A stretch of DNA of 64,000 nt from Candidatus Dormiibacterota bacterium. GTDB taxonomy: Bacteria > Chloroflexota > Dormibacteria > Aeolococcales > Bog-877. The stretch covers positions 6,677-70,676 of the forward strand of contig DAHUZL010000135.1 of assembly GCA_027306655.1 (NCBI GenBank), in the 5' to 3' direction. A program made the translations under genes and the position numbers. Positions 2,530-40,599 of the stretch are shown here, in pieces; within the stretch, counting starts at the first letter, position 1, and each line of letters opens with the position of its first letter. The notes under the pieces are model-generated. The model was not told the DNA's origin and made no database searches. It worked only from the letters and a program-made list of their open reading frames with translations.

Positions 2530-3759
2530 TCAGCCCCGGTCGGTGATGCGGAGGGGGAGCCTGCGACCCGCCCCGAGCAGCAGGATGGCGCCGACCGCGG
2601 CCACGACCGATGCGTAGAGGTACGCGGGCAACGGTCCTTGGGTGTAGAGGACGCCCATCACCAGGTTGCCCACCAACAGCCCGGCGCTGCGCGCGCCCGT
2701 GAGCATCCCCTGGGTCCGCCCCTGGGCGGAGGACGGGGCCAGGCTGGCCACCATCGTCGGCTCGACTGTCTCGATGACCCCCACCGCCGCGCCCAGCACC
2801 GCGACCGCGGCACCGAGGGAGATGATCGGCCCGCCGGTCGCGCTGAGCACGCCGAGTGCGAGCGTGGCGGCCGCGCTCAAACCGTAGCCGAGCAGCCCCA
2901 GCACCGGCACGGCGCGCCAGCGACTGTGCCCGATCGCGAACCCGACCAGCGCCGCTGCGCCCAGGAAGATGGCGTAGGCGATCACCCCGGCGCGGAGGGC
3001 ATGGGCGCCCTCGGCCACGGTGAGGACCGGGAAGCCGACGTTGTAGAAGCTGAAGCCGAAGAGCCCGGTCGCGATCAGGATGGCTCGCAGGGTGGTGCGC
3101 TCGACCGACCGCGCTGCGGCGGACGGGACCGGGACGACGACCGGCGGCGGGGCCGGCCGGCCGGCTCCGCGCTGCGGTCCCGGTCGGGGGCGCGCCAAAG
3201 ACAGGATGACCGTCGACAGCGCGAGCGGGGCCAGCGCCAGCAGGAAGACCCCGCGCAGGCTCCAGCCGAGGGTGAGGAGCCCGGCCAGGCCGAGCGTGGA
3301 CAGGAGCCCGCCCCCGAGGTCGAGGGCATTGAGGAGCCCGAAAGCGCGGCCGCGGTCCTGGGGCGCGACCGCCTCCGCCAGCATCGCCCGTCGGGACGGG
3401 TTGCGGAAGTTGCGCGCCCACCACCCCACCGCGAACAGGACGACGACCTGCCAGGGCGCGACCGCGAGCCCGATCAGCCCAAGGAGCGGGATCCCCGCAT
3501 TGCCGGCGAGCGCCACCCGGCGGTGCCCGTAGCGGTCACCGAGACGGCCGCCCACCACGGCGAGGAGCGAGCCGCCGCCATATCCGATCGCGGTCGCCAG
3601 CGCGAAGACCGGCGTCCCGGCGTGGAGCTCGACCACGAGGAGGAGCGGGAGGCCGGCGATGATCGACTGGTAGCCGAGGTCGGCCGCGGAGGCGGACAGG
3701 GTGATCGCGAGGACATCCCGGGTCACCCATCCAAAGCCGGGACGAATCCGGGGGTTCAT
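2530..3759 (-). CDS. MFS transporter
   Basis: 409 aa with 12 predicted hydrophobic segments. The Gly/Ala/Leu-rich helices and a 'GRLGDRYGHRRV' loop are typical of MFS. Confidence 0.8.
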   Translation of the reverse strand: MNPRIRPGFGWVTRDVLAITLSASAADLGYQSIIAGLPLLLVVELHAGTPVFALATAIGYGGGSLLAVVGGRLGDRYGHRRVALAGNAGIPLLGLIGLAVAPWQVVVLFAVGWWARNFRNPSRRAMLAEAVAPQDRGRAFGLLNALDLGGGLLSTLGLAGLLTLGWSLRGVFLLALAPLALSTVILSLARPRPGPQRGAGRPAPPPVVVPVPSAAARSVERTTLRAILIATGLFGFSFYNVGFPVLTVAEGAHALRAGVIAYAIFLGAAALVGFAIGHSRWRAVPVLGLLGYGLSAAATLALGVLSATGGPIISLGAAVAVLGAAVGVIETVEPTMVASLAPSSAQGRTQGMLTGARSAGLLVGNLVMGVLYTQGPLPAYLYASVVAAVGAILLLGAGRRLPLRITDRG

Positions 3760-3814: not shown

Positions 3815-5440
3815 TCAGCCTGCTCCGAGCTGGAGGGACACCGCGTCCAGCTCGGCCTCCGCCTCCGCCAGCCGATCCCGGCGGGCGCTCCGGGCCGGGG
3901 AGCCCGCCAGGGCGGACGCCCGTGCCCGCTCGACCGCCTCCGTCAGCGCGGGGACGATGCCAGCAGTGACGTCGTCGGCCTGGCGGCACCAGGTGGTGGC
4001 GGCCTCGTCGAGCGCACCCTGGGCGGCGTGGCGGAGCCGGCCCGCCAGCTGGTCCGCGCTCTCAGCCGCCTCGGCGTGCTGTGCACGGTCGCGCCAGCGC
4101 CGACCGATCGCCCCCGGGGCGCGGGCGCGCATCCCGCGCATCCCCACCGCCAGGGCGCCGGCGACGTCGGTGCGATCGATCGAGGCCCGGGTGACGGTGA
4201 GGACCGCCGGGGGCGCGGGCGGCCAGGCCAGCTCAACCGCCAACAGCTCTGAGGCGTCGGACAGGAAGCGGTCCCGAGCCGACCGAACCTGCTCGGCGAA
4301 TCGCGCCGCCCGGGGCGCCAGGTTGCGCTCCACCTCGCCTCGCACCTGCTCGCACCAGGCATCGGCGGATTCGGTCTGCAGGGCGGGCCAGCGCGACCGG
4401 TCCCTGGTCTCAGACAGCCGGATCGCCAGGGTCGAGCGGAGGCGGTCGGCCGCCGGCTCGACGATCGTCGTCCCGGCGGCCCGACACGCCTGCCGGAAGA
4501 CCGCCTTCGCCTCGTCGCTCGAGGTGCGCAGGACAGCCACAGCCAGGCCCAGCTGCTGACGATTGCTCTCGATCCTTGCATCGGGCAGTGAGAGGGATGC
4601 CTGCTCCAGGCGCAGCACCGAGACTGCCGCCGCGCGCTCCGCCCGACCCGCTGTGACCGCCCGCGTGTCGAGGATCTCGTTCCGGGCGGCGGCGACCTCG
4701 TCGACCAGCCATCGGCGCATCGCGGCGATCCCGTCGTCGCCACCGGGCTCCAGCGCTCTCCGCGCGGACACCGCGAAGAGGGGGACGGCGCCCCCGACGA
4801 CGTCGTCCAGCTGCCGGCGGACGAAGGCGATGGTCTCGCGTACGTCCGGCGGCGAGAGGCGATCCACCTTGTTGAGGCACACCCCGAGGCGGGCGTCCGC
4901 GTCCGAGACCAGGCGCATCTGGACCACCTCCGCGGCCGAGAGGGGCGCATCGGCGCTCAGGACCATGAGGGCGGCGTCGATCCGGGAGACGTACGCCGGC
5001 CATCCGAGCCGAGCCTCGACGATGCCGGCGCCATTGCCAAGGTTGTCCTGCTCGGTCACCGCCGCGCGCAGCCGCTCCAGCGGCCATGGCGCTCCCTCCC
5101 GATCGTCCTGGGTGGCCACCACCAGGCTGGGCCGCTCGGCCCATCGAACCAGGGTGGGGACGCCGGTGACGGGCACCGCCCCGGTGGGCAGGACGGCTTC
5201 GCCCAGGAGGGCGTTCATGATCGAGCTCTTGCCTCGCTTGAAGTCACCGACCACTGCCGCGACCACGGCCAGGTCCGCCAGCCTGTGTCGAGCCTCGCGG
5301 ATCCGCTCTCGCTGAGGCGGAGGGACCAGCGCACAGCGCTCGAGCCGGGCGAGCGCGTCCTCAAGCTTGGAGCGATCCCGATCCGCGCGGGCGGCCGGAC
5401 CGGTGGAGGGTCGCGCGGTCGGGCGGGTCACGGCGCGGAC
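3815..5440 (-). CDS. Dynamin-family (BDLP/IniA-like) GTPase. Start uncertain: the ORF is open to 5905 but overlaps the upstream gene.
   Basis: G1 'VVGDFKRGKSSIMNALLGEAVLPTG' and G4 'CLNKVDRL' are present. The G3 position reads 'IVEARLG' rather than 'VDTPG'. The protein is on the same strand as, and immediately downstream of, the Cys-repeat proteins and the Ehr operon. Confidence 0.5.
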   Translation of the reverse strand, partial: VRAVTRPTARPSTGPAARADRDRSKLEDALARLERCALVPPPQRERIREARHRLADLAVVAAVVGDFKRGKSSIMNALLGEAVLPTGAVPVTGVPTLVRWAERPSLVVATQDDREGAPWPLERLRAAVTEQDNLGNGAGIVEARLGWPAYVSRIDAALMVLSADAPLSAAEVVQMRLVSDADARLGVCLNKVDRLSPPDVRETIAFVRRQLDDVVGGAVPLFAVSARRALEPGGDDGIAAMRRWLVDEVAAARNEILDTRAVTAGRAERAAAVSVLRLEQASLSLPDARIESNRQQLGLAVAVLRTSSDEAKAVFRQACRAAGTTIVEPAADRLRSTLAIRLSETRDRSRWPALQTESADAWCEQVRGEVERNLAPRAARFAEQVRSARDRFLSDASELLAVELAWPPAPPAVLTVTRASIDRTDVAGALAVGMRGMRARAPGAIGRRWRDRAQHAEAAESADQLAGRLRHAAQGALDEAATTWCRQADDVTAGIVPALTEAVERARASALAGSPARSARRDRLAEAEAELDAVSLQLGAG

Positions 5441-6909
5441 GCCGCCGAACCGGGCTGACCGCTGGCCCCGGTGGGCGCCGAACCCGGGGGCCAGCTCCCG
5501 GCGCTGTCGAGCGCGCGCGGGTGCCATGCGCTCGCCTGCGTCTCCAGTCCGGACTCGAACCCCGAGCAGTACGCCGCCGCCCGGGCGGCGGCCCCGCCTT
5601 CGGCGCCCGCCGCCTCGTGCCGCGTGTCCCAGCTCTGCTTGCGGAGGACCTCGTCCAGCTCCCAGGTCAGCATCGCCAGCTGTGCGCGAGCGGCGACGAG
5701 AGCGGTGCGCGCCGCGCTCGTCTCCGAGGCGGCGGCGAGAACGTGGGGGAGGTCCCGCCAGCAGGACCCGGTGCCGGCCTGCTGATCGGCGACGCCGGCG
5801 GGGTCCAGCAGTCGGGCCGCGACCCACGCACTGCGGCGGACGGTTGCCACCTGTCGCTCCCGGCATCCGCGGCAGGGTCCGCGGTTGTCCAGCTGGCGGC
5901 GGCATCGGCTGACGAGCGCGGCGGGAGTCCGCGGTGCCGCTGACGGCCCGTCCTCATCGGCGAGCGCCTGGGCCAAGATCCGGGTGAGCTGTTCCGCCAG
6001 CATCGGAGCGCGGGAGGGGGCGGCGCGGGCGCACGCCCAGAGGTGTCGGCGGCAACCCCAGCGTGCCGCGGGGTCACTGGGGCTGGCCTCGCCGAGCTCG
6101 TCGGCGGCCCACGCGATCCATCGCCCCTCGGCGCGACGTCGATGGGCACAGACCGGACAGCCCTCCGGTCGCGGATCAGAACCGCCGGCGGACAGTCCCG
6201 CCGGGCCCGGCCGCCGTCGCGTTGCGTCGGAATCGCGGCCGGCGAGGACCGCGAGCCGGGCCCAGGTGAACGGCTCAGGCGGGGTGGGGTCAGGCCCGGG
6301 GGCGAGCTGGCGGCGGGCCAGGACGATCGCCGCGAGCGACTCCGCCGGAGAGAGCCGGCCCACCAGGCTCGTCGCGTGGACGACACAGAGCGCCTGGGCG
6401 CCTGCGGCGGCGGCGGCGATCTCGGGGTCGGCCAGGCCGGGACGCAGGAGCTCGATGCGGCGGTCGACCGACTCGGCGATACTGGTGCACGCCGGACAGG
6501 GGCGCTGGGGGCCGACGCGACGGGCGAGGAGCGCCGGCTCGGTGCGATCGAGCACGGTGAGGGCGCCTGCCACCGCCGCCGCCGCTGCCCGCACCACGGC
6601 GCCATGGACGACGGCGGCCATGCCGAGCTCGGCTCGGCCCGCCAGGTCGACCGCGTGCTGGGAGCAGAAGCCGCCGGCGTTGGCGATCTGCGCCAGGACG
6701 TCCGGATCGGAGTAGGACTCGGAGCAGAACCAGAACCAGTACCGCTCGGCGGTCCGTTGCTCCTCCCGGCAGAGCAGGCACCCGGGATCGGCGAGCTCCG
6801 CCGCCCAGGCGGCCCGCAGCTGGGCGCGGGTCGCCGAGGGCCGCCCCCGCCCGCGGAGGAGCCCGATCACCGCAGCAGGTCGACGGCCCCGGCCCATCCC
6901 CCGGTCCAG
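5428..6909 (-). CDS. Cys/Trp-rich repeat protein B. Four copies of a putative metal-binding module (CxxC ... C-x2-H-x-W). Function unknown.
   Basis: Repeats: 'CLLCREEQRTAERYWFWF...GFCSQHAV', 'CPACTS...ALCVVHAT', 'CPVCAHRRRAEGRWIAWA...RWGCRRHLWAC', 'CRGCRERQ...SCWRDLPH'. The opposite-strand ORFs are R/G/D-rich shadow frames. The start is approximate (M at 6909 or an internal GTG). Confidence 0.45.
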   Translation of the reverse strand: MDRGMGRGRRPAAVIGLLRGRGRPSATRAQLRAAWAAELADPGCLLCREEQRTAERYWFWFCSESYSDPDVLAQIANAGGFCSQHAVDLAGRAELGMAAVVHGAVVRAAAAAVAGALTVLDRTEPALLARRVGPQRPCPACTSIAESVDRRIELLRPGLADPEIAAAAAGAQALCVVHATSLVGRLSPAESLAAIVLARRQLAPGPDPTPPEPFTWARLAVLAGRDSDATRRRPGPAGLSAGGSDPRPEGCPVCAHRRRAEGRWIAWAADELGEASPSDPAARWGCRRHLWACARAAPSRAPMLAEQLTRILAQALADEDGPSAAPRTPAALVSRCRRQLDNRGPCRGCRERQVATVRRSAWVAARLLDPAGVADQQAGTGSCWRDLPHVLAAASETSAARTALVAARAQLAMLTWELDEVLRKQSWDTRHEAAGAEGGAAARAAAYCSGFESGLETQASAWHPRALDSAGSWPPGSAPTGASGQPGSAASAP

Positions 6910-7637
6910 GCGAGTCCCTCCACCCAGGCCGCCCGCTCCTCCGGGCCCACCGTCGGCCCCCGCCAGGTCATCGAGCGGCCGAACCGGGCGATCCGGCCGG
7001 CGAGGTCCTCCAGCGCCGACAGGCTGCGGAGGTGGTGGGGGTGGTCGGTGGGGCCGTCCAGCAGGTGGGGTCGGCAGAGCGGTCCGCCGCCGTCGAGGCA
7101 GAGGGGGCAGGCGCGCCGCTGCCACACCGGCTCCGTCGCCGCCACCAGCGCCATCGTGCGCCGGAGCCCCTCCATCGGTCGCATCGCCCGCAGCCAGCCG
7201 GCTCCGGGATGCGCGAGCGGGTTGTCGCCGGCCCGCTGCACCATCTCGATGAAGTCGCAGGTGAGACAGGGCCCGCGCTCCAGGAGCAGCCGGCGTCCGA
7301 CCGGCCAGGGCAGGCGGCAGGCGCGGCGCATCGCCCGGGCGGCCCGTGCGATGAGGTCCTCGTGGAGGACGGTGGTGGCGAAGGGGCGGCCACCCCTGCA
7401 CTCGATCTCCATCGCGGCGAACGCCCACCCGTGACGGCGGCACAACCCCCAGCTCCGCCACAGTTGATGGCGAACGTCGGCCACCATGATCGCGCCCCCG
7501 TCGAGCATCGACCAGACCTGGCGGAGCTCATCCACCTGGAGCGGCCTCTCGCGGAGGAGGGCTCGCGGGACGTGCGGCGCAGCCGCCATCTCGATTGCAT
7601 CCCCGTCCGCGCGGGCGGACCGACTCGGAGCCGGCAT
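6867..7637 (-). CDS. Cys/Trp-rich repeat protein A, a paralog of protein B with 2-3 modules
   Basis: 'WRSWGLCRRHGWAF', 'CLTCDFIEMV', 'CPLCLDGGGPLCRPHLL'. It is collinear with B modules ('WGxCRRHxWA ... RxCR ... GPCxxC'). The start codon is 1 nt past the stop of the NuoL-like gene. Confidence 0.45.
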   Translation of the reverse strand: MPAPSRSARADGDAIEMAAAPHVPRALLRERPLQVDELRQVWSMLDGGAIMVADVRHQLWRSWGLCRRHGWAFAAMEIECRGGRPFATTVLHEDLIARAARAMRRACRLPWPVGRRLLLERGPCLTCDFIEMVQRAGDNPLAHPGAGWLRAMRPMEGLRRTMALVAATEPVWQRRACPLCLDGGGPLCRPHLLDGPTDHPHHLRSLSALEDLAGRIARFGRSMTWRGPTVGPEERAAWVEGLAWTGGWAGAVDLLR

Positions 7638-7638
7638 C

Positions 7639-9732
7639 TCAGCGGATGAACAGGATGATGACGAACACCGCCACCACGTAGAGCAGGTAGAGGCTCACGC
7701 TGCCGGCCTGGAGGCGACCAGCGGCCCGCGACAGGCAGCGCGCGGCGCCGACCGCGGGCCGGTACACGTAGGCGTCGACCGGTTCCACCACCCGCCGGGC
7801 GTAGCGGAGGGAGCGGACGAAGTAGGGCGGCTGGTCGTAGTCGCCCTCGATCGCCCGCTGGGCGCGGAAGATGCCGCCGAAGATCGACCGGAACGGGTTG
7901 GTGAAGGCGGTCGCGGTGTACTGCATGGCGGGGTGCGGCTGAGCAATCGCACCGGCCCAGACCGCGGTCTCGCGGCGCGGCCGGCGACCGAGCAGGCGGA
8001 GCACACCGGCGGTGACGCCGATGACGATCGCGAGGGTGCAGAAGATGTAGGTGGGGGAGATGAAGGCGTCGGTGAAGCTGGTGGGGACGATGACCACCCC
8101 GTTGCCGGGGATCACCTGGTGGAGGAAGGTCGCCCCCAGGCGGACCGGGAGGGGGAACCGGCCGGGGTGGAGGAAGATCGGCGGCAGGACGGCGTCGAGC
8201 AGGCCGCGGACCCGGGTGGCGCTGCCGGCGGCCGCGGCCGCCGCCCCCACCCCCAGGGGCGGCACCAACGCGGTCAGCACCGCCGTGGCGGCGGTGACCA
8301 CCATGCCCAGCCGCATCGCCCAGGGCACCTCGCGGGCGCTCCGGGCGGCCTCGCTGCGGGCGACCCCGAGGAAGGTGCCGCCGACCACCCGCACGTAGGT
8401 GGTGACCGCGAGGGCGAAGGTCAGCGTCAAGAGCATCCCCGCCCCCGCCAGGGCGACCCGGCCCTCGGGGCTGCCGAGGATCCGGGCGCGGATCAGGACC
8501 TGCAGCCCCAGCCACTCGGTCTGGAAACCGTTCAGGGGGGGCACGCCGGCGAGCCCCATCGCCCCCAGGAAGAAGAGGAGGGTGGTCCAGCGCATGCGCC
8601 GGGCGAGCCCGCCGAGGCGGTCCATGTCGAGCTGATGGGTGGCGGTGTCGACACTGCCGGCGCCCATGAAGAGCGTGCTCTTGAGGAGGCCGTGGTAGAG
8701 CGTGTGGAGCAGGACCACGACCACCGCGGTGGCGGCGAGGAGCGGGTGGTGGCTCTGGCGGAAGACCAGCGCCGCGCCCAGCATCGCCACCATGAAGCCG
8801 AGGTTCTCGATCGTGCTGTAGGCGAGCATGCGCTTCAGGTCGGACACCAGCAGCGAGAACAGCACGCCATACAGGGCGGTGAGCACGCCCAGGCCGAGCG
8901 TGAGATAGCCCCACCAGGCTGCCGGCTCGGGCAGCAGCGTGACCAGGGCGAGCACGAGGCCGTAGATGCCCGTCTTCACGACCAGCCCGGAGAGGAGAGC
9001 CGAGACGTGGGCGGGCGCCGCCGGGTGCGCCTCCGGCAACCAGCCCTGGAGCGGCAGCAGGCCGGCCTTGACCCCGAAGCCGACCAGGAAGAGCACGAAG
9101 GCGGCCGAGGCCGCCGCCCCGCTGACCTGGGGGTGCCGGGCCAGCGCCACGAAGCTGACGCCGGGGTGGAGGGCGCCGACCAGCGCGAAGGCGACCACCA
9201 GGGCGAGGAAGCCCACCTTGGCCAGCGCCAGCAGCAGGAATGCCGCCTGGGGCCGGTGGGGTCGGTCGAACTCCACCGTCACCAACACGTAGCTGGCGAT
9301 CACCATGCACTCCCAGGCGACAAGGAACGTCACCGCATCGGCTGCGGCGACCACCACCACGATGGTGGCGAGGACGAGGGCGAGCAGCGCGTGGGCGGTG
9401 GCGCGACGCAGCGGCCCGCCAACATGGGCGGTGTAGGCGGCGGAGTAGAGGCAGACCCCGGTGCCGACGACGCCGGTGAGGAGGAGGAAGAGACCGCCGA
9501 GAGGCGTCGCCCGCACCGCGAACGCGCCGATCGGGGTCGACACCGGCAGGGCGGCATGGCCGTGCGCCCCGCCCAGCCAGAGAACGGCCGCCGCCACCGC
9601 GGCCAGGCTGGCGGCGACCCCCGCCGCCGCGGAGAGGTCACCGGCCGCCGGCCAGCGGGCGACCGAGAGCCCGATCGCCGCGGCGGCGATGTACGCGGCC
9701 AGGGCCGCGCCCAGGAGCTCAAGCGCCATCGC
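7639..9732 (-). CDS. NuoL/HyfB-like proton-pumping antiporter subunit of an Ehr/Hyf-type complex
   Basis: About 697 aa polytopic protein with 'WLPEAHPAAPAHVSALLSGLVVKTGIYG' and 'MLAYSTIENLGFM' (Mrp/NuoL signature). The start was chosen at 'MALELLGAAL' (9732). The ORF extension to 9954 overlaps the upstream gene. Confidence 0.8.
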   Translation of the reverse strand, partial: AMALELLGAALAAYIAAAAIGLSVARWPAAGDLSAAAGVAASLAAVAAAVLWLGGAHGHAALPVSTPIGAFAVRATPLGGLFLLLTGVVGTGVCLYSAAYTAHVGGPLRRATAHALLALVLATIVVVVAAADAVTFLVAWECMVIASYVLVTVEFDRPHRPQAAFLLLALAKVGFLALVVAFALVGALHPGVSFVALARHPQVSGAAASAAFVLFLVGFGVKAGLLPLQGWLPEAHPAAPAHVSALLSGLVVKTGIYGLVLALVTLLPEPAAWWGYLTLGLGVLTALYGVLFSLLVSDLKRMLAYSTIENLGFMVAMLGAALVFRQSHHPLLAATAVVVVLLHTLYHGLLKSTLFMGAGSVDTATHQLDMDRLGGLARRMRWTTLLFFLGAMGLAGVPPLNGFQTEWLGLQVLIRARILGSPEGRVALAGAGMLLTLTFALAVTTYVRVVGGTFLGVARSEAARSAREVPWAMRLGMVVTAATAVLTALVPPLGVGAAAAAAGSATRVRGLLDAVLPPIFLHPGRFPLPVRLGATFLHQVIPGNGVVIVPTSFTDAFISPTYIFCTLAIVIGVTAGVLRLLGRRPRRETAVWAGAIAQPHPAMQYTATAFTNPFRSIFGGIFRAQRAIEGDYDQPPYFVRSLRYARRVVEPVDAYVYRPAVGAARCLSRAAGRLQAGSVSLYLLYVVAVFVIILFIR

Positions 9733-10561
9733 GCGCCTCCCCGGCTCGCGGGGCGCGCTCGGTCGCCCGATCGATGGCCAGCAGCAGCCCGTGCAGGAGC
9801 GCCTGCGGGGTGGGCGGGCAGCCGGGCACGTAGACGTCGACCGGGAGGCAGCGGTCGAGCGGCCCCACCGTCGTCGGCCCGCCCGCGAAGCAGCCGCCGT
9901 GGATCGCACAGACCCCGGCCGCGAGGACCAGCTTGGGCGACGGCATCGCGGCATAGGTGGCCCGCAGCGCCGCCTCCATGTTCTCGGTCACCACCCCCGT
10001 GACCAGCAGGACGTCGGCATGCCGCGGGGTGGGGGTGAAGAAGATCCCGAGCCGGTGCAGGTCGACGTAGGGGGTGCCCAGCATCTGCAGCTCCGCCTCG
10101 CAGCCGTTGCAGGACCCGGCGTCGACGTGACGGATGTGGAGCGAGTGGCGGAACAACCGGTGGCCGTGGCGCCGCACCGCGTCCGCCGCCCGCGTCAGGG
10201 GACGCGGCGCGGGCGGGCGGCCGGGCTCCCAGCCCAGCTCCAGGGTGAGACGGCCGCGGTCACGCACGGCGACGCGCGGGTCGGGGTCGACGGCAAAGGC
10301 CTGCGGGAACGCCCGCACGCATCGCCCGCAGAGGACGCAGGCGCCCTGATCGAATCGGAGCGTTCCGGCGGCCTCGGTCCCGGTCGCGGTGAGCGCCGCC
10401 GTGGGGCAGAGGGCGGCCGCCGCCAGCGCATCGGCGGGTGTGAGCCCAGGCCAGCGGCAGGTGATCGACGACGGTGCCCCGTCGTCGCCCACGCCGGCCG
10501 GACGGGGAAAGCGCGTCGTCCGGGTCCCAGTCCGAAGGCCACAGGCGATCCACCGGCTCAT
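9719..10561 (-). CDS. Fused 4Fe-4S ferredoxin-like segment plus NuoB/HycG-like small subunit
   Basis: N-terminal 'CPTAAL...CVLCGRCVRAFP'. NuoB-like part: 'GSCNGCEAE', 'PRHADVLLVTGVV', 'GVCAIHGGCF', 'VPGCPP', so the four FeS Cys are retained. The ATG at 10561 overlaps the large-subunit stop as ATGA. Confidence 0.8.
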   Translation of the reverse strand: MSRWIACGLRTGTRTTRFPRPAGVGDDGAPSSITCRWPGLTPADALAAAALCPTAALTATGTEAAGTLRFDQGACVLCGRCVRAFPQAFAVDPDPRVAVRDRGRLTLELGWEPGRPPAPRPLTRAADAVRRHGHRLFRHSLHIRHVDAGSCNGCEAELQMLGTPYVDLHRLGIFFTPTPRHADVLLVTGVVTENMEAALRATYAAMPSPKLVLAAGVCAIHGGCFAGGPTTVGPLDRCLPVDVYVPGCPPTPQALLHGLLLAIDRATERAPRAGEARDGA

Positions 10562-12102
10562 CGGTCGAACTCCGCCACCGAGAGGTCGAAGCTGGCCTCG
10601 ATCACCGGGTAGTCGGTGAGGTTGTTGCCGCTGGCGCAGGCGTGGGCGTAGGGATGCCAGTTGACCACCGCCGGCGGTCGCGCGCGCCAGTGCCGCACCC
10701 GCCCGTCGCTGTCGAGCTCCACGAAGGCCAGGGTCTCGCCGCCGGGGGCCTCCGCCCAGCCGAGGGCGGCGCCGGCGCGGAGCTCCGGCGGTCCCATCGG
10801 GCCCGGGGCCTCGATCCAGACATCGAGGAGCCGTCGGAGCAGGCCGAGCGACGCGTCGATCTCGTCGAGGCGCACCTGCAGCCGTGCCGCCGCGTCGCCG
10901 TCGCGTCGCACCGGGACCCGGATCGGGAGCCCGGGGTAGGCGAGGTACGGGTGGTCGCGTCGCGCGTCGCAATCGGCTCCGGACGCCCGGCCGACAGGGC
11001 CGACCAGCTGGTGCCGCTCCGCATACGCGGGCTCCAGCACCGCGGTGGTGTCGAGGCGGTCCAGGAACGTCGAGGTCTCGTCGAGGAGCGCGCGCAGCGC
11101 CGACGCTCGATCGGCCCACCCGTCCACCCGCCGGCGCAGGTGGTGGGGGACGACCGAGGGCTGGATGGCGTCGGCCCCGCCGATGGACAGGCACCCGCGC
11201 AGGTACCGGTGGCCGGTGAGGTCGGCGGCGGTGCGCAGGAGCTCCTCGGTGAGGAGCCCGTACTGGGCGCTCGCCACCAGCAGGCCGGTGGCGTCGGCGA
11301 GGCGCGTGACCGCGGCGCAGTGGCTGCGCACGCGCTCCAGCTCGGCCAGGCAGGTCCGGGTCCACTCCGCGGCGGGGCCGACCGCGATGCCGGCGGCGCG
11401 CTCCACCGCCCGGGCGAAGGCGAGGGCGGTGGCGAAGCTGGAGGTCCCGGCCAGCCGCTCGGCGAAGACGAGGGCCCGGTCCGCCGGCAGTCCCTCGGCC
11501 ATCCGCTCCAGGGCCCGGAACTTGTAGCCAAGGCGCGGGCTGACCTGGACCAGGTCCTCCCCACCGGAGCTGAAGAGGAACGCGGCCGACTCCTGGGGCC
11601 CGCTGCGGACCGGGCCGAGGGGGAGCTGGACGAGACCCTGGCCCTCGACGGCCGGTCCGAAGGCGGGGCGCGGGTCCGCCCCGGCCGGGAACTCGGGCGC
11701 CGATGGCGACCGCAGCGGCGGAGCGCCCGGCGAGAGGTGGCGCCGCAGCGGGGCCGGGCGCGGGTGCCCGATCGGCTCCAGCCCGTGAGCCTCCCAGATC
11801 TCGCGTTCGTACCAGCTCGCCGCATGCACGATCGGGGTGAGCGAGGCGAAGGTCGTCCCCTGCAGCTCCGTCGAGAGGACGAGCCACTGCGGGTCGCCGT
11901 GGAGCTGGAGGACGGCGGTGAGCCGGGGTCGGCGCGCGTCGTCGGCGGTGGCGAAGAGGTCGGCGAGGACCGCCGGTCCGGCGAGCCCGGCGACCAGCTC
12001 GGTGAACACCGCCTCGGGGCAGCTCGCCTGCAGCTCGTCGTCGGCCACCGCCCGCGTCCGCAGGCCGCGGTCCTCCGCCAGCTGGCGAAGGGATCGGGTC
12101 AT
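10558..12102 (-). CDS. NuoC+NuoD fused HycE-like 'large subunit' lacking NiFe-binding cysteines
   Basis: 514 aa. NuoC-like 'ASWYEREIWEAHGLEP'. NuoD-like 'LPLGPVRSGPQESAAFLF...RLGYKFRALE'. C-terminus 'NWHPYAHACASGNNLTDYPVIEASFDLSVAEFDR'. No N-terminal RxCxxC motif and no C-terminal DPCxxC motif is present. Confidence 0.8.
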   Translation of the reverse strand: MTRSLRQLAEDRGLRTRAVADDELQASCPEAVFTELVAGLAGPAVLADLFATADDARRPRLTAVLQLHGDPQWLVLSTELQGTTFASLTPIVHAASWYEREIWEAHGLEPIGHPRPAPLRRHLSPGAPPLRSPSAPEFPAGADPRPAFGPAVEGQGLVQLPLGPVRSGPQESAAFLFSSGGEDLVQVSPRLGYKFRALERMAEGLPADRALVFAERLAGTSSFATALAFARAVERAAGIAVGPAAEWTRTCLAELERVRSHCAAVTRLADATGLLVASAQYGLLTEELLRTAADLTGHRYLRGCLSIGGADAIQPSVVPHHLRRRVDGWADRASALRALLDETSTFLDRLDTTAVLEPAYAERHQLVGPVGRASGADCDARRDHPYLAYPGLPIRVPVRRDGDAAARLQVRLDEIDASLGLLRRLLDVWIEAPGPMGPPELRAGAALGWAEAPGGETLAFVELDSDGRVRHWRARPPAVVNWHPYAHACASGNNLTDYPVIEASFDLSVAEFDR

Positions 12103-13580
12103 CGCCGCACCTCGCGAGCCGCGTCGGCGAGCAGGGTGTGGAGGGGCCCGGGAACGAAGACGCCGAGGACCAGGACCGCCGCCAGGAGGACATAGCCAGG
12201 GAGCAGGACCGCCGCTCCGAGCTCGGCCCGCCGCGGGAGCGGGTCGGCCCGACCCTCGCCGAACACCATCGTGCTGAAGGGGGCGACCAGGGCGAGGAAC
12301 CCCACCAGCAGGAGGAGGGCGATCAGGCCGGCGGCGCCGAAGGCGCGGGCCCCGATCCCGCCCGCGACGATCGACGCCTCCGAGAGGAAGAGCCCGAACG
12401 GAGGCGCTCCCGCGATGGCGAGGGCCCCGGCCAGCACCAGGACGGCGGCCGCCGGGGCGACCCGGATCATGCCTCGGACCTCGCTGATGGTGGTGGTGCG
12501 GAAGCGGAGGAGGAGGTTGCCGGCGTTGAAGAACATGAGGCACTTGGCGAGGCTGTGGGCCAGCATCTGGAGCAGCGCGCCGAACACCGCCAGGGGGGCG
12601 CCCAGCCCGAAGCCGGCGGCGATCAGGCCCATCTGGTCGACCGACGAGTAGGCCAGCAGTCGCTTGTAGTCGCGCTGGGAGACGAGGAAGACGACCCCCA
12701 CGGCCATCGAGAGGAGCCCGAAGGCGAGCAGGGCGGAGTGAAGCTCGCTGCCCCCGTGCTGCGCCGGGGTGGCCAGCGCCAGCACCCGGACGATCGCGAG
12801 CATGGCGCAGTTGAGCTCGGCGCCGGACAGCATCGAGCAGATCGGGGCAGGGGCCTGGCTGTGCGCGTCGGGGAGCCAGGTGTGCATCGGCGCCAGCCCG
12901 GCCTTGGTGCCGAAGCCGACGAGCACCAAGAGGAACCCCAGGGTGGCGAGAGTGGGGGAGAGATGGGGCCCCGCGGCGCGCAGGACGGGGATCGCGAAGT
13001 TGTAGCTGCCGCCGAGCCACCCGACCGCCGACGCGTAGAGGCACAGGAATCCGAACAGGGCGATCAGCTCGCCCGCCACCGCCAGCATGATGAACTTCCA
13101 CGCTGCCTCCAGAGGACCGTGGGACCCGTAAAAGTCGACCAGCGGAGCGGAGGCGAATGTGGTTGCGGTCACCGCGGTCCACAGCAGGCCGAGGTTGCCG
13201 GCCACCGTGGCCGCCACCATGGTGAAGACGAAGAGGTGGAAGAGGGCGAAGTACCGGCGCGTCTCGCCGGCGCGCAGGGTGTGGACGTTCGCGGAGGAGC
13301 GGAAGTAGGCGATCGAGTAGAGGGCGGCCAGCGCGGAGACCAGCGTCACGATCAGGAGCGCGAGCGCACCGAGGTGGTCAAGGTAGAGCCAGTCGCCGAA
13401 CGCCGTGAACCGGCCCCGCTGCACCACCCGGGCGACCAGCGTGAGTCCCAGACCGAGGCCCACGAGTGCGGTCGGGACGACCAGGATCAGGCGCAGGTCA
13501 TCCCCCGGCACCAGCCAGGTCGCGACCGCGGCGGCCAGCGGCACCGCCAGCACGGCGAGCAGGAGCGCGGCGTCGATCAT
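12099..13580 (-). CDS. NuoN/NuoM/HyfF-like antiporter subunit
   Basis: Start at 'MIDAALLLAV'. Motifs 'GFGTKAGLAPMHTWLPDAHSQAPAPICSMLSG' and 'LLAYSSVDQMG'. The upstream R/P-rich ORF extension is rejected. The gene overlaps its neighbour by 4 nt. Confidence 0.75.
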   Translation of the reverse strand: MIDAALLLAVLAVPLAAAVATWLVPGDDLRLILVVPTALVGLGLGLTLVARVVQRGRFTAFGDWLYLDHLGALALLIVTLVSALAALYSIAYFRSSANVHTLRAGETRRYFALFHLFVFTMVAATVAGNLGLLWTAVTATTFASAPLVDFYGSHGPLEAAWKFIMLAVAGELIALFGFLCLYASAVGWLGGSYNFAIPVLRAAGPHLSPTLATLGFLLVLVGFGTKAGLAPMHTWLPDAHSQAPAPICSMLSGAELNCAMLAIVRVLALATPAQHGGSELHSALLAFGLLSMAVGVVFLVSQRDYKRLLAYSSVDQMGLIAAGFGLGAPLAVFGALLQMLAHSLAKCLMFFNAGNLLLRFRTTTISEVRGMIRVAPAAAVLVLAGALAIAGAPPFGLFLSEASIVAGGIGARAFGAAGLIALLLLVGFLALVAPFSTMVFGEGRADPLPRRAELGAAVLLPGYVLLAAVLVLGVFVPGPLHTLLADAAREVRR

Positions 13581-14221
13581 CCGCGCAGCCGGGTGAGCTC
13601 GGAGGTGTCGGTGCTGAAGACCTCCTCGCGCATCCGAGCCAGCAGGAAGGACATCACCACTACCGCGATCAGGACGTCGAGGACCAGGGCGAACTCGATC
13701 AGCAGGCTCAGCCGCGGCGCCAGCACCAGCCCGATCAGGAGGAGCCCGTTCTCGGCCGCCAGCAGGCCCCCCATCTGGAGCACGCCGTCGCGTCGGGCGG
13801 TGGTGGTGAAGAGGCCGAGGAGCAGGACGGCGATGCCGATGCCGAGGTCGGCCCCGGGGAGGAGATGGGACGGCGAGGGGATCCGGCTGGCCGCGATGAA
13901 GCCGGCCAGCGACAGGGCGGCGCCGAGCAGGAGCGCGGTGGGGAACCCCACGTGGTAGGAGCTCTCCCGACCGGCGCTGAGGGCGACCCGCATCCGCCGG
14001 CGCAGAAGGGTGGGGATCGCCACCCCCTTGAGGGACACGATCAGCAGGCCGAAGAGGAGCAGCTCCGTCAGGTGGGTGTGGACGAAGAGAGCGATCGCGA
14101 TGCCGCCGAGCAGCCACGACTGGAGCTGGTAGGCGCCCACCGCCGTGCGCAGGCGACGGGCCACGATCAGCTGGAAGCTGACCAAAAGGAAGAGGGCCGC
14201 GAGGGTGATCTCAGGCAGCAC
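13577..14221 (-). CDS. HyfE/HycP-like small membrane subunit
   Basis: 214 aa with about 7 TM segments, positioned between the NuoH-like and NuoN-like genes as in hyf/hyc operons. Confidence 0.65.
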   Translation of the reverse strand: MLPEITLAALFLLVSFQLIVARRLRTAVGAYQLQSWLLGGIAIALFVHTHLTELLLFGLLIVSLKGVAIPTLLRRRMRVALSAGRESSYHVGFPTALLLGAALSLAGFIAASRIPSPSHLLPGADLGIGIAVLLLGLFTTTARRDGVLQMGGLLAAENGLLLIGLVLAPRLSLLIEFALVLDVLIAVVVMSFLLARMREEVFSTDTSELTRLRG

Positions 14222-14263
14222 GGGACCATCCCCCGGATCGACGCCGGGCGTCGGCCATCGCCG

Positions 14264-15295
14264 TCACCGCCCCAGGGTGGAGAGCACCAGGCCCAGGAAC
14301 GCGAGCACGAAGCTGCCCCCGAGGTACTCGGGCACGCGCATGATCCGGATCTTGGCGAGCGCGGACTCGATCACCACGATCAGGAAGGCGGCGGCCAGCA
14401 TCTTGCCGACGAGCGTGGCGATCGCCACCGCGAAGGCGGGGACGGTCACCGCTCCCGCCAGTCCGGGGGGGAAGACCAGCACGTTGAGCCAGACCACCAG
14501 CACCACGAAGAGCTTCATGGCGCCTCCCCATTCCATCAGCGCCTGGTCAGAACCGGCGTACTCGAACAGGCGGGAGGACTCGATCATGGAGAGCTCCTGG
14601 GCGCTGTTGGGGTTGTCGATCGGGAGCCGTCCGGTCTCGGCCAGGACCACCATCAGGAAGGCGGCCGCGATCAGCGCATGGCTCGGGGTGATCGCGGCGG
14701 AGCTGGTGAAGAGGGTCTGGTTGACCACGAACGGCACCGTCCCGCCGGAGATGAACCCGACCGCGAAGAACACCACGATGAAGGTGGGCTCAGCCAGCGA
14801 GGAGACGAAGCGGGACCGGCTCGCGCCCAGGCCGCCGTAGACGCTGCCGCTGTCCATCGCCGCCAGGTTGGTGAAGAAGCCGCCGATGCCGATGACGAAC
14901 CCGCTCCCCACCATGTCGGCCATGAACGCCCAGCTGAGCGGGGCGGCGGTGAGGACCGGGATGAGGACGGCGAAGGCGATCGGCGTCGCGAAGACCACGT
15001 AGGGGGCGACGCGGAAGATGAACGAGGCGTCAGGGGTGGTGGAGCGGTCCTTGCCGAAGAGCTTGCGGAGGTCGCGGTAGGGCTGCAGCGGTGACGGCCC
15101 CCGCCGCGACTGCAGCCTCGCCTTGCCGGTCTCGATCACCCCCTTCAGCAGGGGCGCGAGCGCGAGCACGACCAGCAGCGCGACTACCTGGCCGACCGCG
15201 TCGGCTAGCACGTGGCACCCCAGGTGGACCCGATCGAGGCTCGCGCCATCCCCCAACTCCCGAAAGGCCTTCCGGTCTTCGTGGTCAGGGGCCAT
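14264..15295 (-). CDS. NuoH/HycD/HyfC-like membrane subunit
   Basis: 'APLLKGVIETGKARLQSRRGPSPLQPYRDLRKLF' is the NuoH/HycD N-terminal signature. It is the first gene of the operon. The true start is probably an internal GTG near 15211. Confidence 0.75.
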   Translation of the reverse strand: MAPDHEDRKAFRELGDGASLDRVHLGCHVLADAVGQVVALLVVLALAPLLKGVIETGKARLQSRRGPSPLQPYRDLRKLFGKDRSTTPDASFIFRVAPYVVFATPIAFAVLIPVLTAAPLSWAFMADMVGSGFVIGIGGFFTNLAAMDSGSVYGGLGASRSRFVSSLAEPTFIVVFFAVGFISGGTVPFVVNQTLFTSSAAITPSHALIAAAFLMVVLAETGRLPIDNPNSAQELSMIESSRLFEYAGSDQALMEWGGAMKLFVVLVVWLNVLVFPPGLAGAVTVPAFAVAIATLVGKMLAAAFLIVVIESALAKIRIMRVPEYLGGSFVLAFLGLVLSTLGR

Positions 15296-16607: not shown

Positions 16608-17315
16608 TCACTCCTCGGTCGGCAGGTGGACGTAGAGGGACTGGATCCCGACCCGGCCCGGCCCCTCGAAGCGGTTGAAGACCAGGCGGCCGACGCCGCC
16701 GAAGATCCCGGTGCGCAGCCCGTACACCTGGGGCCGCATCCGCACGGTCGGGTCCATGTAGACCCAGCCGCCCGGCTCGACGTCGATCGCCTCGCCCTGG
16801 GCCAGCTCCTTCTCGAAGACGTTGCCGTAGCCGTGGAGCCAGACCACCCCGTCGTCGTCGCGGGCCTCGAAGCGGTCGAGCCAGAGGCCGTTGCCGCCGA
16901 ACAGGTTGTTGGTGACACCGCGGATCCGCCTCGGGGTGAAGCGCAGGCTCCCGCTGGCGGCGAGGAACTGGTGCTCGCGCACCAGCACCACCTCGCCCCT
17001 GGCGAGCGGGAGCGGGAAGACGTGACCGGGAGCGTCGCGGGAGAAGGCGATCGAGCCCGCGCCGCGGGCCTGGGTGAGGAACACCGGCATCCCCAGGACC
17101 ATCCGCCGCACCGCCCCCCGCATCGGACGCAGCGTCACCCCCAGCTGCGGATCCTTCCAGAGGACCAGGTGGTGCTCGAAGAAGAGCGGGACCGAGCCGT
17201 CGAGGGTGCAGTGGAGCACCGGCACCAGCTCCCCCGCGATCCGGTACCGGATCCCGGGGGCCCAGCCCTCGCTGATGCGGGTCGGCAGGATGGTGGGCGG
17301 GCTGCTCATGGGCAC
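16608..17315 (-). CDS. AIM24/DUF124 family protein
   Basis: 235 aa, 'ISEGWAPGIRYRIAGELVPVLHCTL...LWLDRFEARDDDGVVWLHGYG'. Confidence 0.7.
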   Translation of the reverse strand: MPMSSPPTILPTRISEGWAPGIRYRIAGELVPVLHCTLDGSVPLFFEHHLVLWKDPQLGVTLRPMRGAVRRMVLGMPVFLTQARGAGSIAFSRDAPGHVFPLPLARGEVVLVREHQFLAASGSLRFTPRRIRGVTNNLFGGNGLWLDRFEARDDDGVVWLHGYGNVFEKELAQGEAIDVEPGGWVYMDPTVRMRPQVYGLRTGIFGGVGRLVFNRFEGPGRVGIQSLYVHLPTEE

Positions 17316-17391: not shown

Positions 17392-18306
17392 TCAGAGGTG
17401 GATGGTGGGGACCCCGCCGGCGGTCACCTGGAGGGCGGCCCACATCCCGGCCGGCTCGTGGCCGGGCACCAGGCAGGCGATCCGGTAGCTCCCGGCCGCC
17501 CCCGTGACGAAGTGGAAGGTGGCGTGGCCCCCGGGGGCCACCCCCTTGACCGGGTCGGGCAGGGCGGCGCCGGCGAAGACCGGGGTCGTCCCGGTGGCGG
17601 TGACCACCGCTGCCGAGTGGTTGAGGCTGGCGACATTGCTGAAGTCGACCGTCACCGTCCAGCCGGTGGGGATCCCGATTCGCATCCCCCCCGAGGTGGT
17701 GCCGTTGTAGTCGAGGCCGTCGTTCACGTTGCCGTAGCCGGCGACCAGCTGGAGGGTGACGGTCCGGGCGGCGGCGTCGTAGCGAAGCCAGCGATCCAGC
17801 GAGACGGTCGCCGCCGTCGGGGTCGGACGCGGGCGGGGGCTCGGGCGCGCGCTCGGGCTGGGGTGGGGGCTCCGCACCGGGGACGTGCTCTGGGGCAGGA
17901 CGGCGCCGGACGGCGAGGCCGCGGGGAGGTGGACGTCGAGGGTGGCCGTGATCAGGCCGTCGATCAGGACCGCGATCCGGCCGCGGTGCCGGGTCTGCCC
18001 GTCGACCGTCCATCCCGTCAGCGGGGGCGCCCCTGGCAGCCGCGCCGAGGGCCCCAGCCGGGCGGTGAGCCCGCAGGGGATGGAGAGGGTGCTGGTCGGT
18101 TGGTCGAGGAGGGTGGACCGGCCCCCGACGGTGGCCATCGCTCCGGCCACCGGGTGGCCGCCCCGGAGCGGCAGGGAGACGGTGAGCGAGCACCCGGAGC
18201 CCGTGGCCGGGGAGTTGAGCGGGCCCCGGCCGCAGCCGCCCACGGTGAGCGCGGCGGCGACGAGGCAGCCGCCGAGGGCGACCGCCCGGGTCGTGGGCTG
18301 GGCCAT
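17392..18306 (-). CDS. Lipoprotein with a C-terminal type-1 copper (cupredoxin/sulfocyanin-like) domain
   Basis: N-terminal signal with lipobox-like 'LTVGGC'. P/S-rich linker 'SPHPSPSARPSPRPRPTPT'. Copper ligands 'HATFHF ... IACLVPGHEPAGMW' (His...Cys-x4-His-x4-Met). The upstream part of the 655-aa ORF is rejected. Confidence 0.6.
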   Translation of the reverse strand: MAQPTTRAVALGGCLVAAALTVGGCGRGPLNSPATGSGCSLTVSLPLRGGHPVAGAMATVGGRSTLLDQPTSTLSIPCGLTARLGPSARLPGAPPLTGWTVDGQTRHRGRIAVLIDGLITATLDVHLPAASPSGAVLPQSTSPVRSPHPSPSARPSPRPRPTPTAATVSLDRWLRYDAAARTVTLQLVAGYGNVNDGLDYNGTTSGGMRIGIPTGWTVTVDFSNVASLNHSAAVVTATGTTPVFAGAALPDPVKGVAPGGHATFHFVTGAAGSYRIACLVPGHEPAGMWAALQVTAGGVPTIHL

Positions 18307-29486: not shown

Positions 29487-29644
29487 CGGCCATCGATGAG
29501 GCTGAGGCACCATGATAGGTCCTGAGTTTGTCCTCTCAGCCAGTTGACGAGGGCGACTCGCCCACGGCCTTATTGAGATCAGACGGTCGGGGCTAGAGTC
29601 ACCTCGGGCCGCCCTCGTCATCAACGGCACCGGGAGGGAGCACA

Positions 29645-31492: not shown

Positions 31493-31521
31493 CGGCGGAG
31501 ACGGCGGCTGCCTTCCGCCAT

Positions 31522-32790: not shown

Positions 32791-32818
32791 TCTGTCCCAA
32801 CTCTACCGAGTGCGCGCG

Positions 32819-33214
32819 TCAGTCGCTGGAGGCGTCCGCTTGAACCTCGACCAGCCAGGCCGGGTCAACCAGCCGGGAAACCTCAACCAATGTGGATGGA
32901 GGCGGCGTGCTACCGAAGAAACTAGGCGCGATCGCACGCTCAGCGCGGAGGTACTCGTCCATGTCCGTGGTGAAGGTGTTGAGGTGGGTGACCGCTCGCC
33001 AGTCGAGGCCGAGGGCCCTCAGCGCCGTCGTCACCATCTCGTAGCAGCAGCGAATCTGCCCAGCCATGTCAGTCGCCACCAGCCGGCCCTCGGCGTCGAG
33101 CGCCACCTGACCACCGATGCGGTAGCTGTGGCGGCCATCCGCCACCGAGACGTGGCTGTAGAGGTTGTCGGTGGGCGGATGCAGGCCGATCGGGTTGCGA
33201 TACACTACGGTCAT
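32819..33214 (-). CDS. ridA: RidA/YjgF family protein
   Basis: Start at 'MTVVYRNPIGLHPPTDNLYSHVSVADG'. The gene overlaps the upstream DMFase-like gene by 4 nt. Confidence 0.75.
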   Translation of the reverse strand: MTVVYRNPIGLHPPTDNLYSHVSVADGRHSYRIGGQVALDAEGRLVATDMAGQIRCCYEMVTTALRALGLDWRAVTHLNTFTTDMDEYLRAERAIAPSFFGSTPPPSTLVEVSRLVDPAWLVEVQADASSD

Positions 33215-35469: not shown

Positions 35470-35852
35470 GTGGGGAACACGGGCACACCGAGGTCGCTCA
35501 AGCGGCGGCAGAAGACCATGTGTTCGGCCTCGGCACGGGAGGTTGCGGCCAGGTCGGGAACTCGCTCCGGTGGCGTCTGGCGATCTCCGGAGAGCACGAC
35601 AACACCGAACAGTTGGTCTGGCTCCAAGGCGACGATCCCATACTGCCCCCGCTGCTCCCCGTGATTGCGGCGCAGGTATAGGAGGATGCGTTCCAAGTGA
35701 GGCGAGTGCGGTCCGAAGGGGTTATGGCGGTGCTCGGCGACGAGCTCCGGTGTAACCAGCGGACGGAGATGGTCCTCGAACAGCCGACGATCGGCGGCCC
35801 GGTAGGCAGCGATCTCAGGCGGATCGGGTGACACGCCGCCGACCGTTGCCAC
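35466..35852 (-). CDS. N,N-dimethylformamidase small (alpha) subunit-like protein
   Basis: 128 aa, translationally coupled upstream of the large-subunit-like gene. The small-plus-large arrangement mirrors dmfA1-dmfA2. Confidence 0.45.
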   Translation of the reverse strand: MATVGGVSPDPPEIAAYRAADRRLFEDHLRPLVTPELVAEHRHNPFGPHSPHLERILLYLRRNHGEQRGQYGIVALEPDQLFGVVVLSGDRQTPPERVPDLAATSRAEAEHMVFCRRLSDLGVPVFPT

Positions 35853-35853
35853 C

Positions 35854-38665: not shown

Positions 38666-38767
38666 GTGGAGTTCGCGATTGTGTTATCGGCCAATTGCCA
38701 TGTCCATCGGGGCGGGTCACACTCGGCCCCGTACAGGGGCGTCGACCGACGCGTGGGGGATTTGGGG

Positions 38768-40591: not shown

Positions 40592-40599
40592 GGATCGGG

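Follow-up and report, generated by a model that had tools for sequence, protein, structure and literature searches.

An overlapping gene pair in a Dormibacteria genome encodes predicted all-alpha proteins with repeated, putatively zinc-binding Cys3His modules

The gene pair and its coding frames

The window analysed here, a stretch of 64,000 nucleotides of contig DAHUZL010000135.1 (assembly GCA_027306655.1) from a Candidatus Dormiibacterota bacterium, carries on its minus strand two adjoining genes, A and B, whose products contain a repeated module with three conserved cysteines and one histidine (Cys3His). Gene A (6867-7637, minus) encodes up to 256 amino acids (aa), including eight putative ligands, C66/H69, C124/C127, C177/C180 and C188/H191, that do not vary in its family. 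Gene B (5428-6870, minus) encodes a 480-aa protein assigned to the DUF6062 family, in which four Cys3His modules are followed by a conserved C-terminal helix. Downstream lie a gene for a 538-aa dynamin-like GTPase with a Dynamin_N match (3815-5431, minus) and one for a major facilitator superfamily (MFS) transporter (2530-3726, minus), of a subfamily that recurs beside both B-family and A-family genes. Upstream of A stands an Ehr-type operon, which is described below.

These genes are closely packed. The stop codon of the last upstream gene, HyfB-like, is 1 nucleotide from the first ATG of A; the GTG start of B at 6870 overlaps the TGA of A as GTGA, and the GTG start of the GTPase gene overlaps the stop codon of B in the same way, so that A, B and the GTPase are joined by successive GTGA stop/start overlaps. 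The start of B is most likely this GTG 6870 rather than the far-upstream GTG 7461 of the raw open reading frame (ORF), whose 677 residues are an artefact of the frame that remains open upstream; the 480-aa product has also been called independently in public assemblies. For A the candidate starts are ATG 7637, ATG 7589 and GTG 7535, the last corresponding to the 222-aa call of NCBI, and the choice is ambiguous because the N-terminal ~30 residues are unconserved and are modelled with low confidence.

A and B are real genes. The DNA around them is 72-79% GC, and frame-by-frame analysis gives GC1/2/3 values of 0.76/0.59/0.91 for A and 0.78/0.66/0.875 for B. GC2 in these two frames is the lowest among all frames, and each frame has one stop, at its end. 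A first-pass annotation, which had described a repeated Cys-rich module in the two genes from the letters of the sequence, had proposed GC3 as a test of the strand; GC3, the low GC2 and the single terminal stops support the minus-strand frames, and so do the homologues of both proteins described below. All the motifs that it quoted are present in the minus-strand translations: in B, RTAERYWFWF at residues 39-48, GFCSQHAV at 67-74, LCVVHAT at 161-167, RRRAEGRWIAWA at 244-255, WGCRRHLWAC at 271-280, RSAWVAARLLDP at 346-357 and SCWRDLPHVL at 369-378; in A, WGLCRRHGWAF at 63-73 and LCRPHLL at 187-193.

Anatomy and history of the repeat

Each of the four modules of B is about 75-95 aa long and contains a CxxC followed, about 36-38 residues on, by a CxxH. 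The general motif is CxxC-x32-34-G-[FL]-C-x2-H, and the repeat period is 94-113 aa. Module 1 (M1; 6553-6801, minus; aa 24-106) has C31xxC34 and C69xxH72; M2 (6295-6519, minus; aa 118-192) has C125xxC128 and C162xxH165; and M3 (5959-6180, minus; aa 231-304) has C238xxC241 and C273xxH276, the latter pair within WGCRRHLW. M4 (5671-5895, minus; aa 326-400) has C333xxC336, and its second pair reads C370-W-R-D, with H376 close by; relatives have CxxH at this position in most cases, not all. The modules are followed by a C-terminal signature (5560-5670, minus), W403-E-L-x-E-x2-R-K-x2-W414-x2-R417-x-E...G-x-E, which, the ligands aside, is conserved more strongly than any other stretch of the family.

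In a 40-sequence alignment of the B family, C31, C34, C69, H72, C125, C128, C238, C241, C273, H276, C333, C336 and C370 are invariant, and C162 and H165 are at least 90% conserved. Conservation in module 1 extends to W47 and Y53 (at least 90%) and to an invariant E51. Across 77 aligned modules the three cysteines do not vary and the histidine is present in 74. The repeated Cys3His module that had been read from the window alone is thus real, though not with the dimensions first given to it: 60-70 aa is shorter than either the modules or their period, and WGxCRRHxW, offered as the signature of the module, fits two copies only. The count of four copies in B stands for the modules, with CWRD in place of the fourth CxxH in this particular protein.

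The modules align with one another better than with shuffled controls, as the first-pass annotation had required. Smith-Waterman scores give z = 7.6 for B1-B2, 4.9 for B2-B4, 4.5 for B1-B3 and 3.45 for B3 against the first module of A, and the observed scores are reached by 0-6 of 1000 shuffles. The 40-sequence alignment was also cut into its four modules, which were compared as profiles: hhalign pairs M2 with M4 at E 7e-19, M1 with M3 at 6e-15 and M1 with M2 at 7e-11, and the remaining pairs within B lie between 4e-9 and 6e-8. These comparisons of sequence identify the four modules of B as homologues of one another. Since M1-M3 and M2-M4 are the best pairs, B arose by duplication of a two-module unit, (M1-M2)x2.

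Protein A resembles one such unit. Its N-terminal half (7302-7550, minus; aa 30-112) is homologous to M1 of B without the leading CxxC, and its CxxH lies in WGLCRRHGW. Its C-terminal half (6993-7292, minus; aa 116-215) is M2-like, with CLTC at 124-127, an inserted CPLC at 177-180 and the final pair in GGGPLCRPH (188-191). By hhalign the N-terminal half matches M1 with 97% probability (E 6e-11), in an alignment that begins just past the position of the missing CxxC, and the C-terminal half matches M2 with 78% probability (E 1.7e-5). C188 and H191 align on the CxxH of M2, and the extra C177xxC180 falls inside an insertion. The two or three module copies first assigned to A are therefore better described as a two-module relative that lacks an N-terminal CxxC and presents, in order, a CxxH, two CxxC and a CxxH.

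Relation to the DUF6062 family

B matches the Pfam model DUF6062 (PF19538) with 27.7 bits, against a gathering threshold of 27 (E 2.2e-6). The match covers residues 27-170, that is, M1 and M2 only, and model positions 16-172 of 243. The same model is matched by all 40 aligned relatives of B, with a best E value of 1e-18, and on these profile matches B is assigned to DUF6062. The notion of an unrecognisable module therefore fails for B, although the families from which the module had been set apart (ZAS, Wbl, DksA, HypA and FmdB) are indeed unmatched. The B-type proteins differ from the 243-position Pfam model in having four modules, through doubling, and an additional conserved helix at the C-terminus.

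The family is large and broadly distributed. An exhaustive HMMER profile search of 1.84 billion cluster representatives, each standing for a cluster at 50% identity, recovers 1750 representatives at E <= 1e-3 and 688 at E <= 1e-10, mostly 430-520 aa long. Word-indexed searching is of little use here, as the low-complexity Ala/Arg composition swamps the index: it returned one relative for B and two for the 40-sequence profile. Four CxxC motifs, each followed by CxxH 34-44 residues on, are present in 28 of the 40 best matches, and the other 12 are without one or two module copies, some through truncation. By an independent route, the C-terminal signature was turned into a degenerate DNA pattern, which located 76 loci in GTDB species genomes, every one of which has a significant match to the B hidden Markov model (HMM). 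Members occur in Actinomycetota (Amycolatopsis, Streptomyces, Saccharopolyspora, Solirubrobacterales), Chloroflexota, Bipolaricaulota, Desulfobacterales, Binatia, Rokubacteria, Gemmatimonadota, Nitrospira, Bacillota and Thermotoga, in the archaeon Haladaptatus and on a Cupriavidus plasmid; the plasmid homologue found no match in a plasmid database. Culturable organisms that carry the family include Rubrobacter, Amycolatopsis, Streptomyces boninensis, Saccharopolyspora soli and Cupriavidus sp. TMH.W2 (plasmid pTMH.W2_3). Named relatives carry the labels 'DUF6062 family protein' or 'hypothetical protein'. A literature search found no published mention of DUF6062 or PF19538, and nothing of relevance emerged from a broader one on dynamin, zinc and MFS.

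In several genomes DUF6062-type genes occur as tandem pairs or triplets, some of them coding for shorter two-module forms (loci L019, L024, L039, L045, L053 and L013; in L013 a 213-aa DUF6062 protein lies near a B-type gene), and the family therefore expands locally. Two relatives are fused to other sequences that were judged by eye: in P0073 (809 aa) about 370 aa that resemble HEAT-like repeats precede a complete four-module B, and in P0118 (671 aa) such a B is followed by what resembles a NUDIX hydrolase domain, with a Nudix-box-like motif.

Protein A has no Pfam or NCBIfam match, and its 15 homologues, 37-62% identical to it, have no Pfam match; the DUF6062 model matches none of the 16 proteins, even at E <= 10. 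The named homologues come from metagenome-assembled genomes of Candidatus Dormibacteraeota, except for P0004, whose source label is Verrucomicrobiae. In the 16 sequences W63-G-x-C66-x-R-H69-x-W, C124-x2-C127, C177-x2-C180 and G-x-G-x2-C188-R-x-H191 are invariant, and the eight ligands would be enough for two putative sites. By BLASTP the similarity of A to B is marginal (E 0.02), and local HMMs of the two families cross-match in both directions, down to E 6e-12. A is best classed as an uncatalogued sister family of DUF6062, outside that family as currently defined.

Five further loci, in Bacillota, Limnocylindrales, Dehalococcoidia and Rokubacteria, also have an A-family gene next to a B-family gene. 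All eight ligands are kept in the four complete A-family ORFs there, the fifth ORF ending at the edge of its locus. Since A/B pairs occur in other phyla and the A-B similarity is barely seen by BLASTP, A and B are ancient paralogous subfamilies. The first-pass annotation was thus correct to treat the genes as homologous, with A collinear with M1-M2 of B, and wrong to imply a recent local duplication.

Predicted fold and metal site

AlphaFold2 models of A and B are all-helical, with a predicted local distance difference test score of 88 and a predicted template modelling score of 0.83 for A, and 83 and 0.82 for B. DSSP assigns no beta strands in either model, and in both of them every ligand pair lies where a helix begins. 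In each module of B the CxxC opens a helix of about 20 residues (32-52, 126-147, 239-260 and 334-353), which is followed by a short helix, then by a helix started by the CxxH (70-79, 163-168, 274-283 and 374-380), and finally by a long helix. The modelled fold is thus all-alpha, confidently predicted and novel-looking. Structural zinc is typically bound in this manner, by ligand pairs at helix N-termini of a compact helical unit.

The zinc ribbon and the treble clef, proposed earlier from ligand spacing, both fail, because the models contain helices only and no strand or beta-hairpin. With the treble clef A and B share only that half of the definition which places ligands at a helix N-terminus, and the models have neither the beta-hairpin knuckles nor the three-stranded sheet of a zinc ribbon. 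The conserved pattern would nevertheless fit one tetrahedral metal site per module, built from its four ligands, and by analogy with known sites the metal is probably zinc. Neither family has transmembrane segments.

Resemblance to bS18 and to other zinc proteins

When compared with sequences in the Protein Data Bank (PDB), the B-family profile matches almost only the Cys-containing ribosomal bS18 proteins. Module 4 matches mitochondrial bS18b (mS40) at E 0.006 and module 2 matches M. tuberculosis S18-1 at E 0.019, while the four best matches of a generic 77-module profile are all mycobacterial bS18 (E 0.007-0.045). These alignments run for 52 residues without a gap and keep both CxxC and CxxH in register. 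A control profile in which the non-ligand columns were permuted, with ligands and spacing kept, finds no bS18 at E <= 10, and the match is therefore not due to ligand spacing alone. In the passage of PMC5912738 that cites Prisic et al. 2015, M. tuberculosis S18-1 is described as binding zinc with a sub-micromolar dissociation constant.

In bS18 (e.g., PDB 5V93 chain r) as in the modules, about 33 residues separate the CxxC from a CxxH/Q, and a helix starts at this second pair. The similarity suggests, by analogy, the same kind of zinc site. It is too weak for a claim of homology, and could reflect convergence on the geometry of the site. bS18 is a single ribosomal RNA-binding domain of ~80 aa with no repeat, whereas B is a 480-aa four-repeat protein from a non-ribosomal operon. 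The CxxC of bS18 is followed by an extended segment, whereas that of the B models leads directly into the ~20-residue helix. The Pfam Ribosomal_S18 model has no match in 40 B-family members, and searches with the A and B folds did not recover bS18 structures.

The ZAS anti-sigma factors (zf-HC2; RsrA) are also all-alpha proteins with zinc ligands on helices, and provide a possible model for a redox-sensitive site. A and B differ from them in lacking the H-x3-C-x2-C motif and its spacing and in having no adjacent sigma factor, and B differs also in its four repeats, where ZAS proteins have one domain; no Pfam zf-HC2 match was found in A, B or their homologues. Likewise, no HypA, DksA/TraR, WhiB-like or FmdB model is among the Pfam and NCBIfam matches of these proteins.

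Genomic neighbourhoods of the B family

Neighbours were surveyed within 8 kb at 79 B-family loci and clustered by homology, a survey of the immediately downstream ORF being too noisy in high-GC DNA. The most frequent neighbours are MFS transporters related to the 2530-3726 gene of the window (16 loci), dynamin-like GTPases (15, the window included) and ATP-binding cassette (ABC) ATPases (15), followed by enolase (12), DUF58 proteins (10), MutS-like ATPases (10), MoxR (8), antiporter-M or antiporter-like genes (8) and A-family genes (5).

The first two of these adjoin B directly in some loci. The MFS gene directly flanks B on the same strand, with a gap of at most 155 bp or an overlap, in seven loci, and the dynamin-like GTPase does so, within the same limit, in four loci besides the window. 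At 14 other loci, spread over at least eight phyla, a dynamin-like GTPase is a neighbour of B. B, the GTPase and the MFS transporter occur together in the window and in L048, L051, L055, L064 and L074, which belong to different phyla. In L007 the stop codon of A and the start codon of the MFS gene overlap. Attempts to name the MFS subfamily of the window gene returned generic sub-threshold matches only.

Linkage to a dynamin-like GTPase, here by translational coupling, is what B has in common with accessory genes in the operons of bacterial dynamin-like proteins, such as LeoABC, IniBAC and DynAB. We know of no described dynamin partner that carries a Cys3His repeat. A role in a defence system was considered and rejected, as PADLOC-DB contains no match for A or B; the adjoining GTPase has a weak match to LeoA (E 2.6e-4).

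Other associations are also repeated. Pairs of MoxR AAA+ ATPase and DUF58 genes lie directly beside B-family genes in L018, L030, L038, L042, L045, L052 and L077, and pairs of MutS-like ATPase genes do so in ten loci. In two Bipolaricaulota loci (L004:8691-12375 and L011:7610-11273) the B homologue lies between an upstream Na+/H+ exchanger, joined to it by a start/stop overlap in L004, and a downstream conserved 269-aa protein. The latter was considered as a possible member of the A family and rejected, being unrelated to A and without a Pfam match.

The Ehr-type operon and the remainder of the window

The operon upstream of A (7639-15295, minus) comprises seven genes and is group 4 hydrogenase-like, with NADHdh, a 214-aa protein, antiporter-M, a large subunit, a NuoI/NuoB-like fusion and HyfB-like among its products. 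The large subunit (10558-12102) has ERLAGTSSFA in place of RxCGxC and ends in ...FDLSVAEFDR in place of DPCxxCxxR, and the NiFe cysteine motifs are missing as well from the orthologous large subunits L009:3649-5202 and L001:5401-7053. Since both NiFe ligand motifs are without cysteines, the complex is of the Ehr type and not a group 4 [NiFe]-hydrogenase. A HypA-like role for A or B in hydrogenase maturation was dropped, as there is no NiFe site in the neighbouring complex that would need maturation, and no HypA model is matched. The small subunit (9719-10564, minus) is the NuoI-like/NuoB-like fusion. The 214-aa protein (13577-14221, minus) has no Pfam match, and a 220-aa gene occupies the equivalent position in Rubrobacteraceae (L009:1519-2181).

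The arrangement of the window is not general even among its relatives. In close relatives of the window genome A is divergent beside the Ehr operon and B is absent; other relatives, represented by L007, have the same flanking genes with only A and the MFS gene between them, the Ehr operon, B and the dynamin-like gene being absent. With the flanking thioesterase, methyltransferase and AIM24 genes as reference, the Ehr operon of the window runs in the opposite direction to that of L001, a relative at 59% identity. From this inversion and from the reduced locus of L007, it follows that the Ehr operon and the pair of B with the dynamin-like gene behave as blocks that can be inserted or deleted. 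In a Rubrobacteraceae genome the B homologue, 29% identical, is also the last gene of an Ehr operon. The antiporter-like genes that adjoin B elsewhere are found mostly in Actinomycetota and often in convergent orientation.

Beyond a divergent thioesterase/methyltransferase pair lie an AIM24-family protein (16608-17315, minus) and a protein with a sulfocyanin (SoxE) blue-copper domain (17392-18306, minus). Within 29600-40600 the GC content falls to 59-69%, from 72-79% in the surrounding DNA. This island, possibly a horizontal acquisition, has genes for two SBP_bac_5 solute-binding proteins, an M28 peptidase, an arginase-family enzyme, a PucR regulator and a dimethylformamidase-like protein (DMFA2_C).

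Discussion

The balance of the evidence tips, if modestly, towards A and B being cytoplasmic, all-alpha, structural multi-zinc scaffold proteins that work with membrane machinery. Each module would form a unit of helix, short helix, helix and long helix, in which a single structural Zn(II) would be clamped in a Cys3His site between the CxxC that opens the first helix and the G-[FL]-C-x2-H that opens the third. B would contain four such sites, and A, an old and divergent two-module relative, would have the ligands for two. Neither protein has a catalytic, DNA-binding or transmembrane signature. They would most probably act as zinc-stabilised scaffold or adaptor subunits, possibly responsive to zinc or to redox state, for membrane-associated partners. 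The context would nominate as partners the dynamin-like GTPase that is translationally coupled to B and the MFS transporter that follows the GTPase, and the recurrence of the triad supports this choice. In the window genome the set of A, B, GTPase and MFS transporter is appended to the Ehr respiratory-type operon.

Several observations weigh against this proposal. The neighbourhoods of B are heterogeneous, with MoxR and DUF58, MutS-like ATPases, enolase, ABC ATPases, the Na+/H+ exchanger and Ehr also recurrent. Most B loci show neither the MFS transporter nor a dynamin-like protein within 8 kb, and three A-family contexts are without B altogether. Furthermore, the fourth site of the B protein in the window has an aspartate where the histidine is expected.

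A possible but unlikely alternative is that the zinc sites are thiol switches, in the manner of RsrA-type anti-sigma factors and Hsp33, so that oxidation would free the zinc, reshape A and B, and thereby switch the GTPase or the transporter. The all-alpha architecture of the models, with ligands on helices, the presence of several Cys-rich sites within one chain, and coupling to stress-associated machinery (the dynamin-like GTPase and MoxR/DUF58) are all consistent with such a mechanism, which is compatible with the structural zinc scaffold and would refine it. However, the neighbourhoods contain no sigma factor or chaperone, save for an unrelated extracytoplasmic function (ECF)/zf-HC2 pair 7 kb off in L011, and the lack of a zf-HC2 match also argues against it.

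It is distinctly unlikely that the Cys3His tetrads hold iron-sulfur clusters, [2Fe-2S] or [4Fe-4S], and that B, together with A, serves the Ehr complex from the cytoplasm as a subunit for electron input or redox sensing. Cys3His ligation of such clusters is known from mitoNEET, from the distal cluster of NiFe hydrogenases and from cluster N5 of complex I. B ends the Ehr operon both here and in the Rubrobacteraceae genome, antiporter-M genes adjoin B in eight of the 79 loci, and the Ehr large subunits are without NiFe ligands; Ehr complexes are, moreover, in need of an electron-donor partner that is as yet unidentified (PMC6349859). On the other hand, the association with Ehr genes is mostly confined to Actinomycetota, and there the genes are often convergent instead of co-transcribed. 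The family is common where no Ehr genes are present, beside the Na+/H+ exchanger in Bipolaricaulota and the MFS transporter in Desulfobacterales, and a relative of the window genome retains A with no Ehr operon at the locus. The nearest solved analogue in sequence is the zinc site of bS18, and the placement of ligand pairs at helix N-termini is likewise that of structural zinc. A bolder extension would make the DUF6062-type proteins the missing cytoplasmic partner of Ehr, with four iron-sulfur sites serving as an electron wire or redox sensor and with the module recruited elsewhere for MFS or cation-proton antiporter (CPA) transporters and dynamin-like GTPases; we consider this very doubtful.

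Nucleic acids, rather than membrane partners, would be the targets if the modules were bS18-like RNA- or DNA-binding zinc domains and A and B were regulators or RNA chaperones, which seems quite improbable. bS18 is the only solved relative in sequence, and the permuted control was negative. Both families are rich in Arg and Trp, residues that the first-pass annotation had suggested may contact nucleic acids or a membrane interface, and are basic (B relatives have a median isoelectric point of 8.8, and A relatives mostly have values of 9-11), and MutS-like ATPases are neighbours in 10 loci. However, the link to bS18 is marginal and is not seen at the level of the fold. Pfam and NCBIfam scans reveal neither a helix-turn-helix nor any other domain known to bind nucleic acids. 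Most of the conserved residues other than the ligands are hydrophobic or aromatic, as in a protein core, and membrane proteins dominate the neighbourhoods.

The idea that A and B are spurious frames with chance Cys patterns, prompted by the long ORFs that high-GC DNA gives in all frames and by an antisense frame of B with equal GC3, is already refuted by the stops in that antisense frame, by agreement among independent gene calls, by confident AlphaFold models and by hundreds of homologues across phyla with invariant ligands.

Taken for the window alone, the finding is a moderate one: a real and well-conserved pair of putative metalloprotein genes, whose function is read from context. B falls in a catalogued family of unknown function, and its predicted all-alpha fold is without a solved relative. 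That family is large and broad, with about 1750 clusters at 50% identity in phyla that include Desulfobacterota and in at least one haloarchaeon. No earlier description appears to exist of how the repeat is built, of the sister family represented by A, of a possible zinc site of the bS18 type, or of the link with dynamin-like GTPases and MFS transporters. A regular four-fold Cys3His repeat with defined boundaries, its (M1-M2)x2 history and a recurrent triad of genes provide a testable entry into this uncharacterised family, and make B a candidate for the partner of dynamin-like proteins in bacteria, about whose cofactors little is known.

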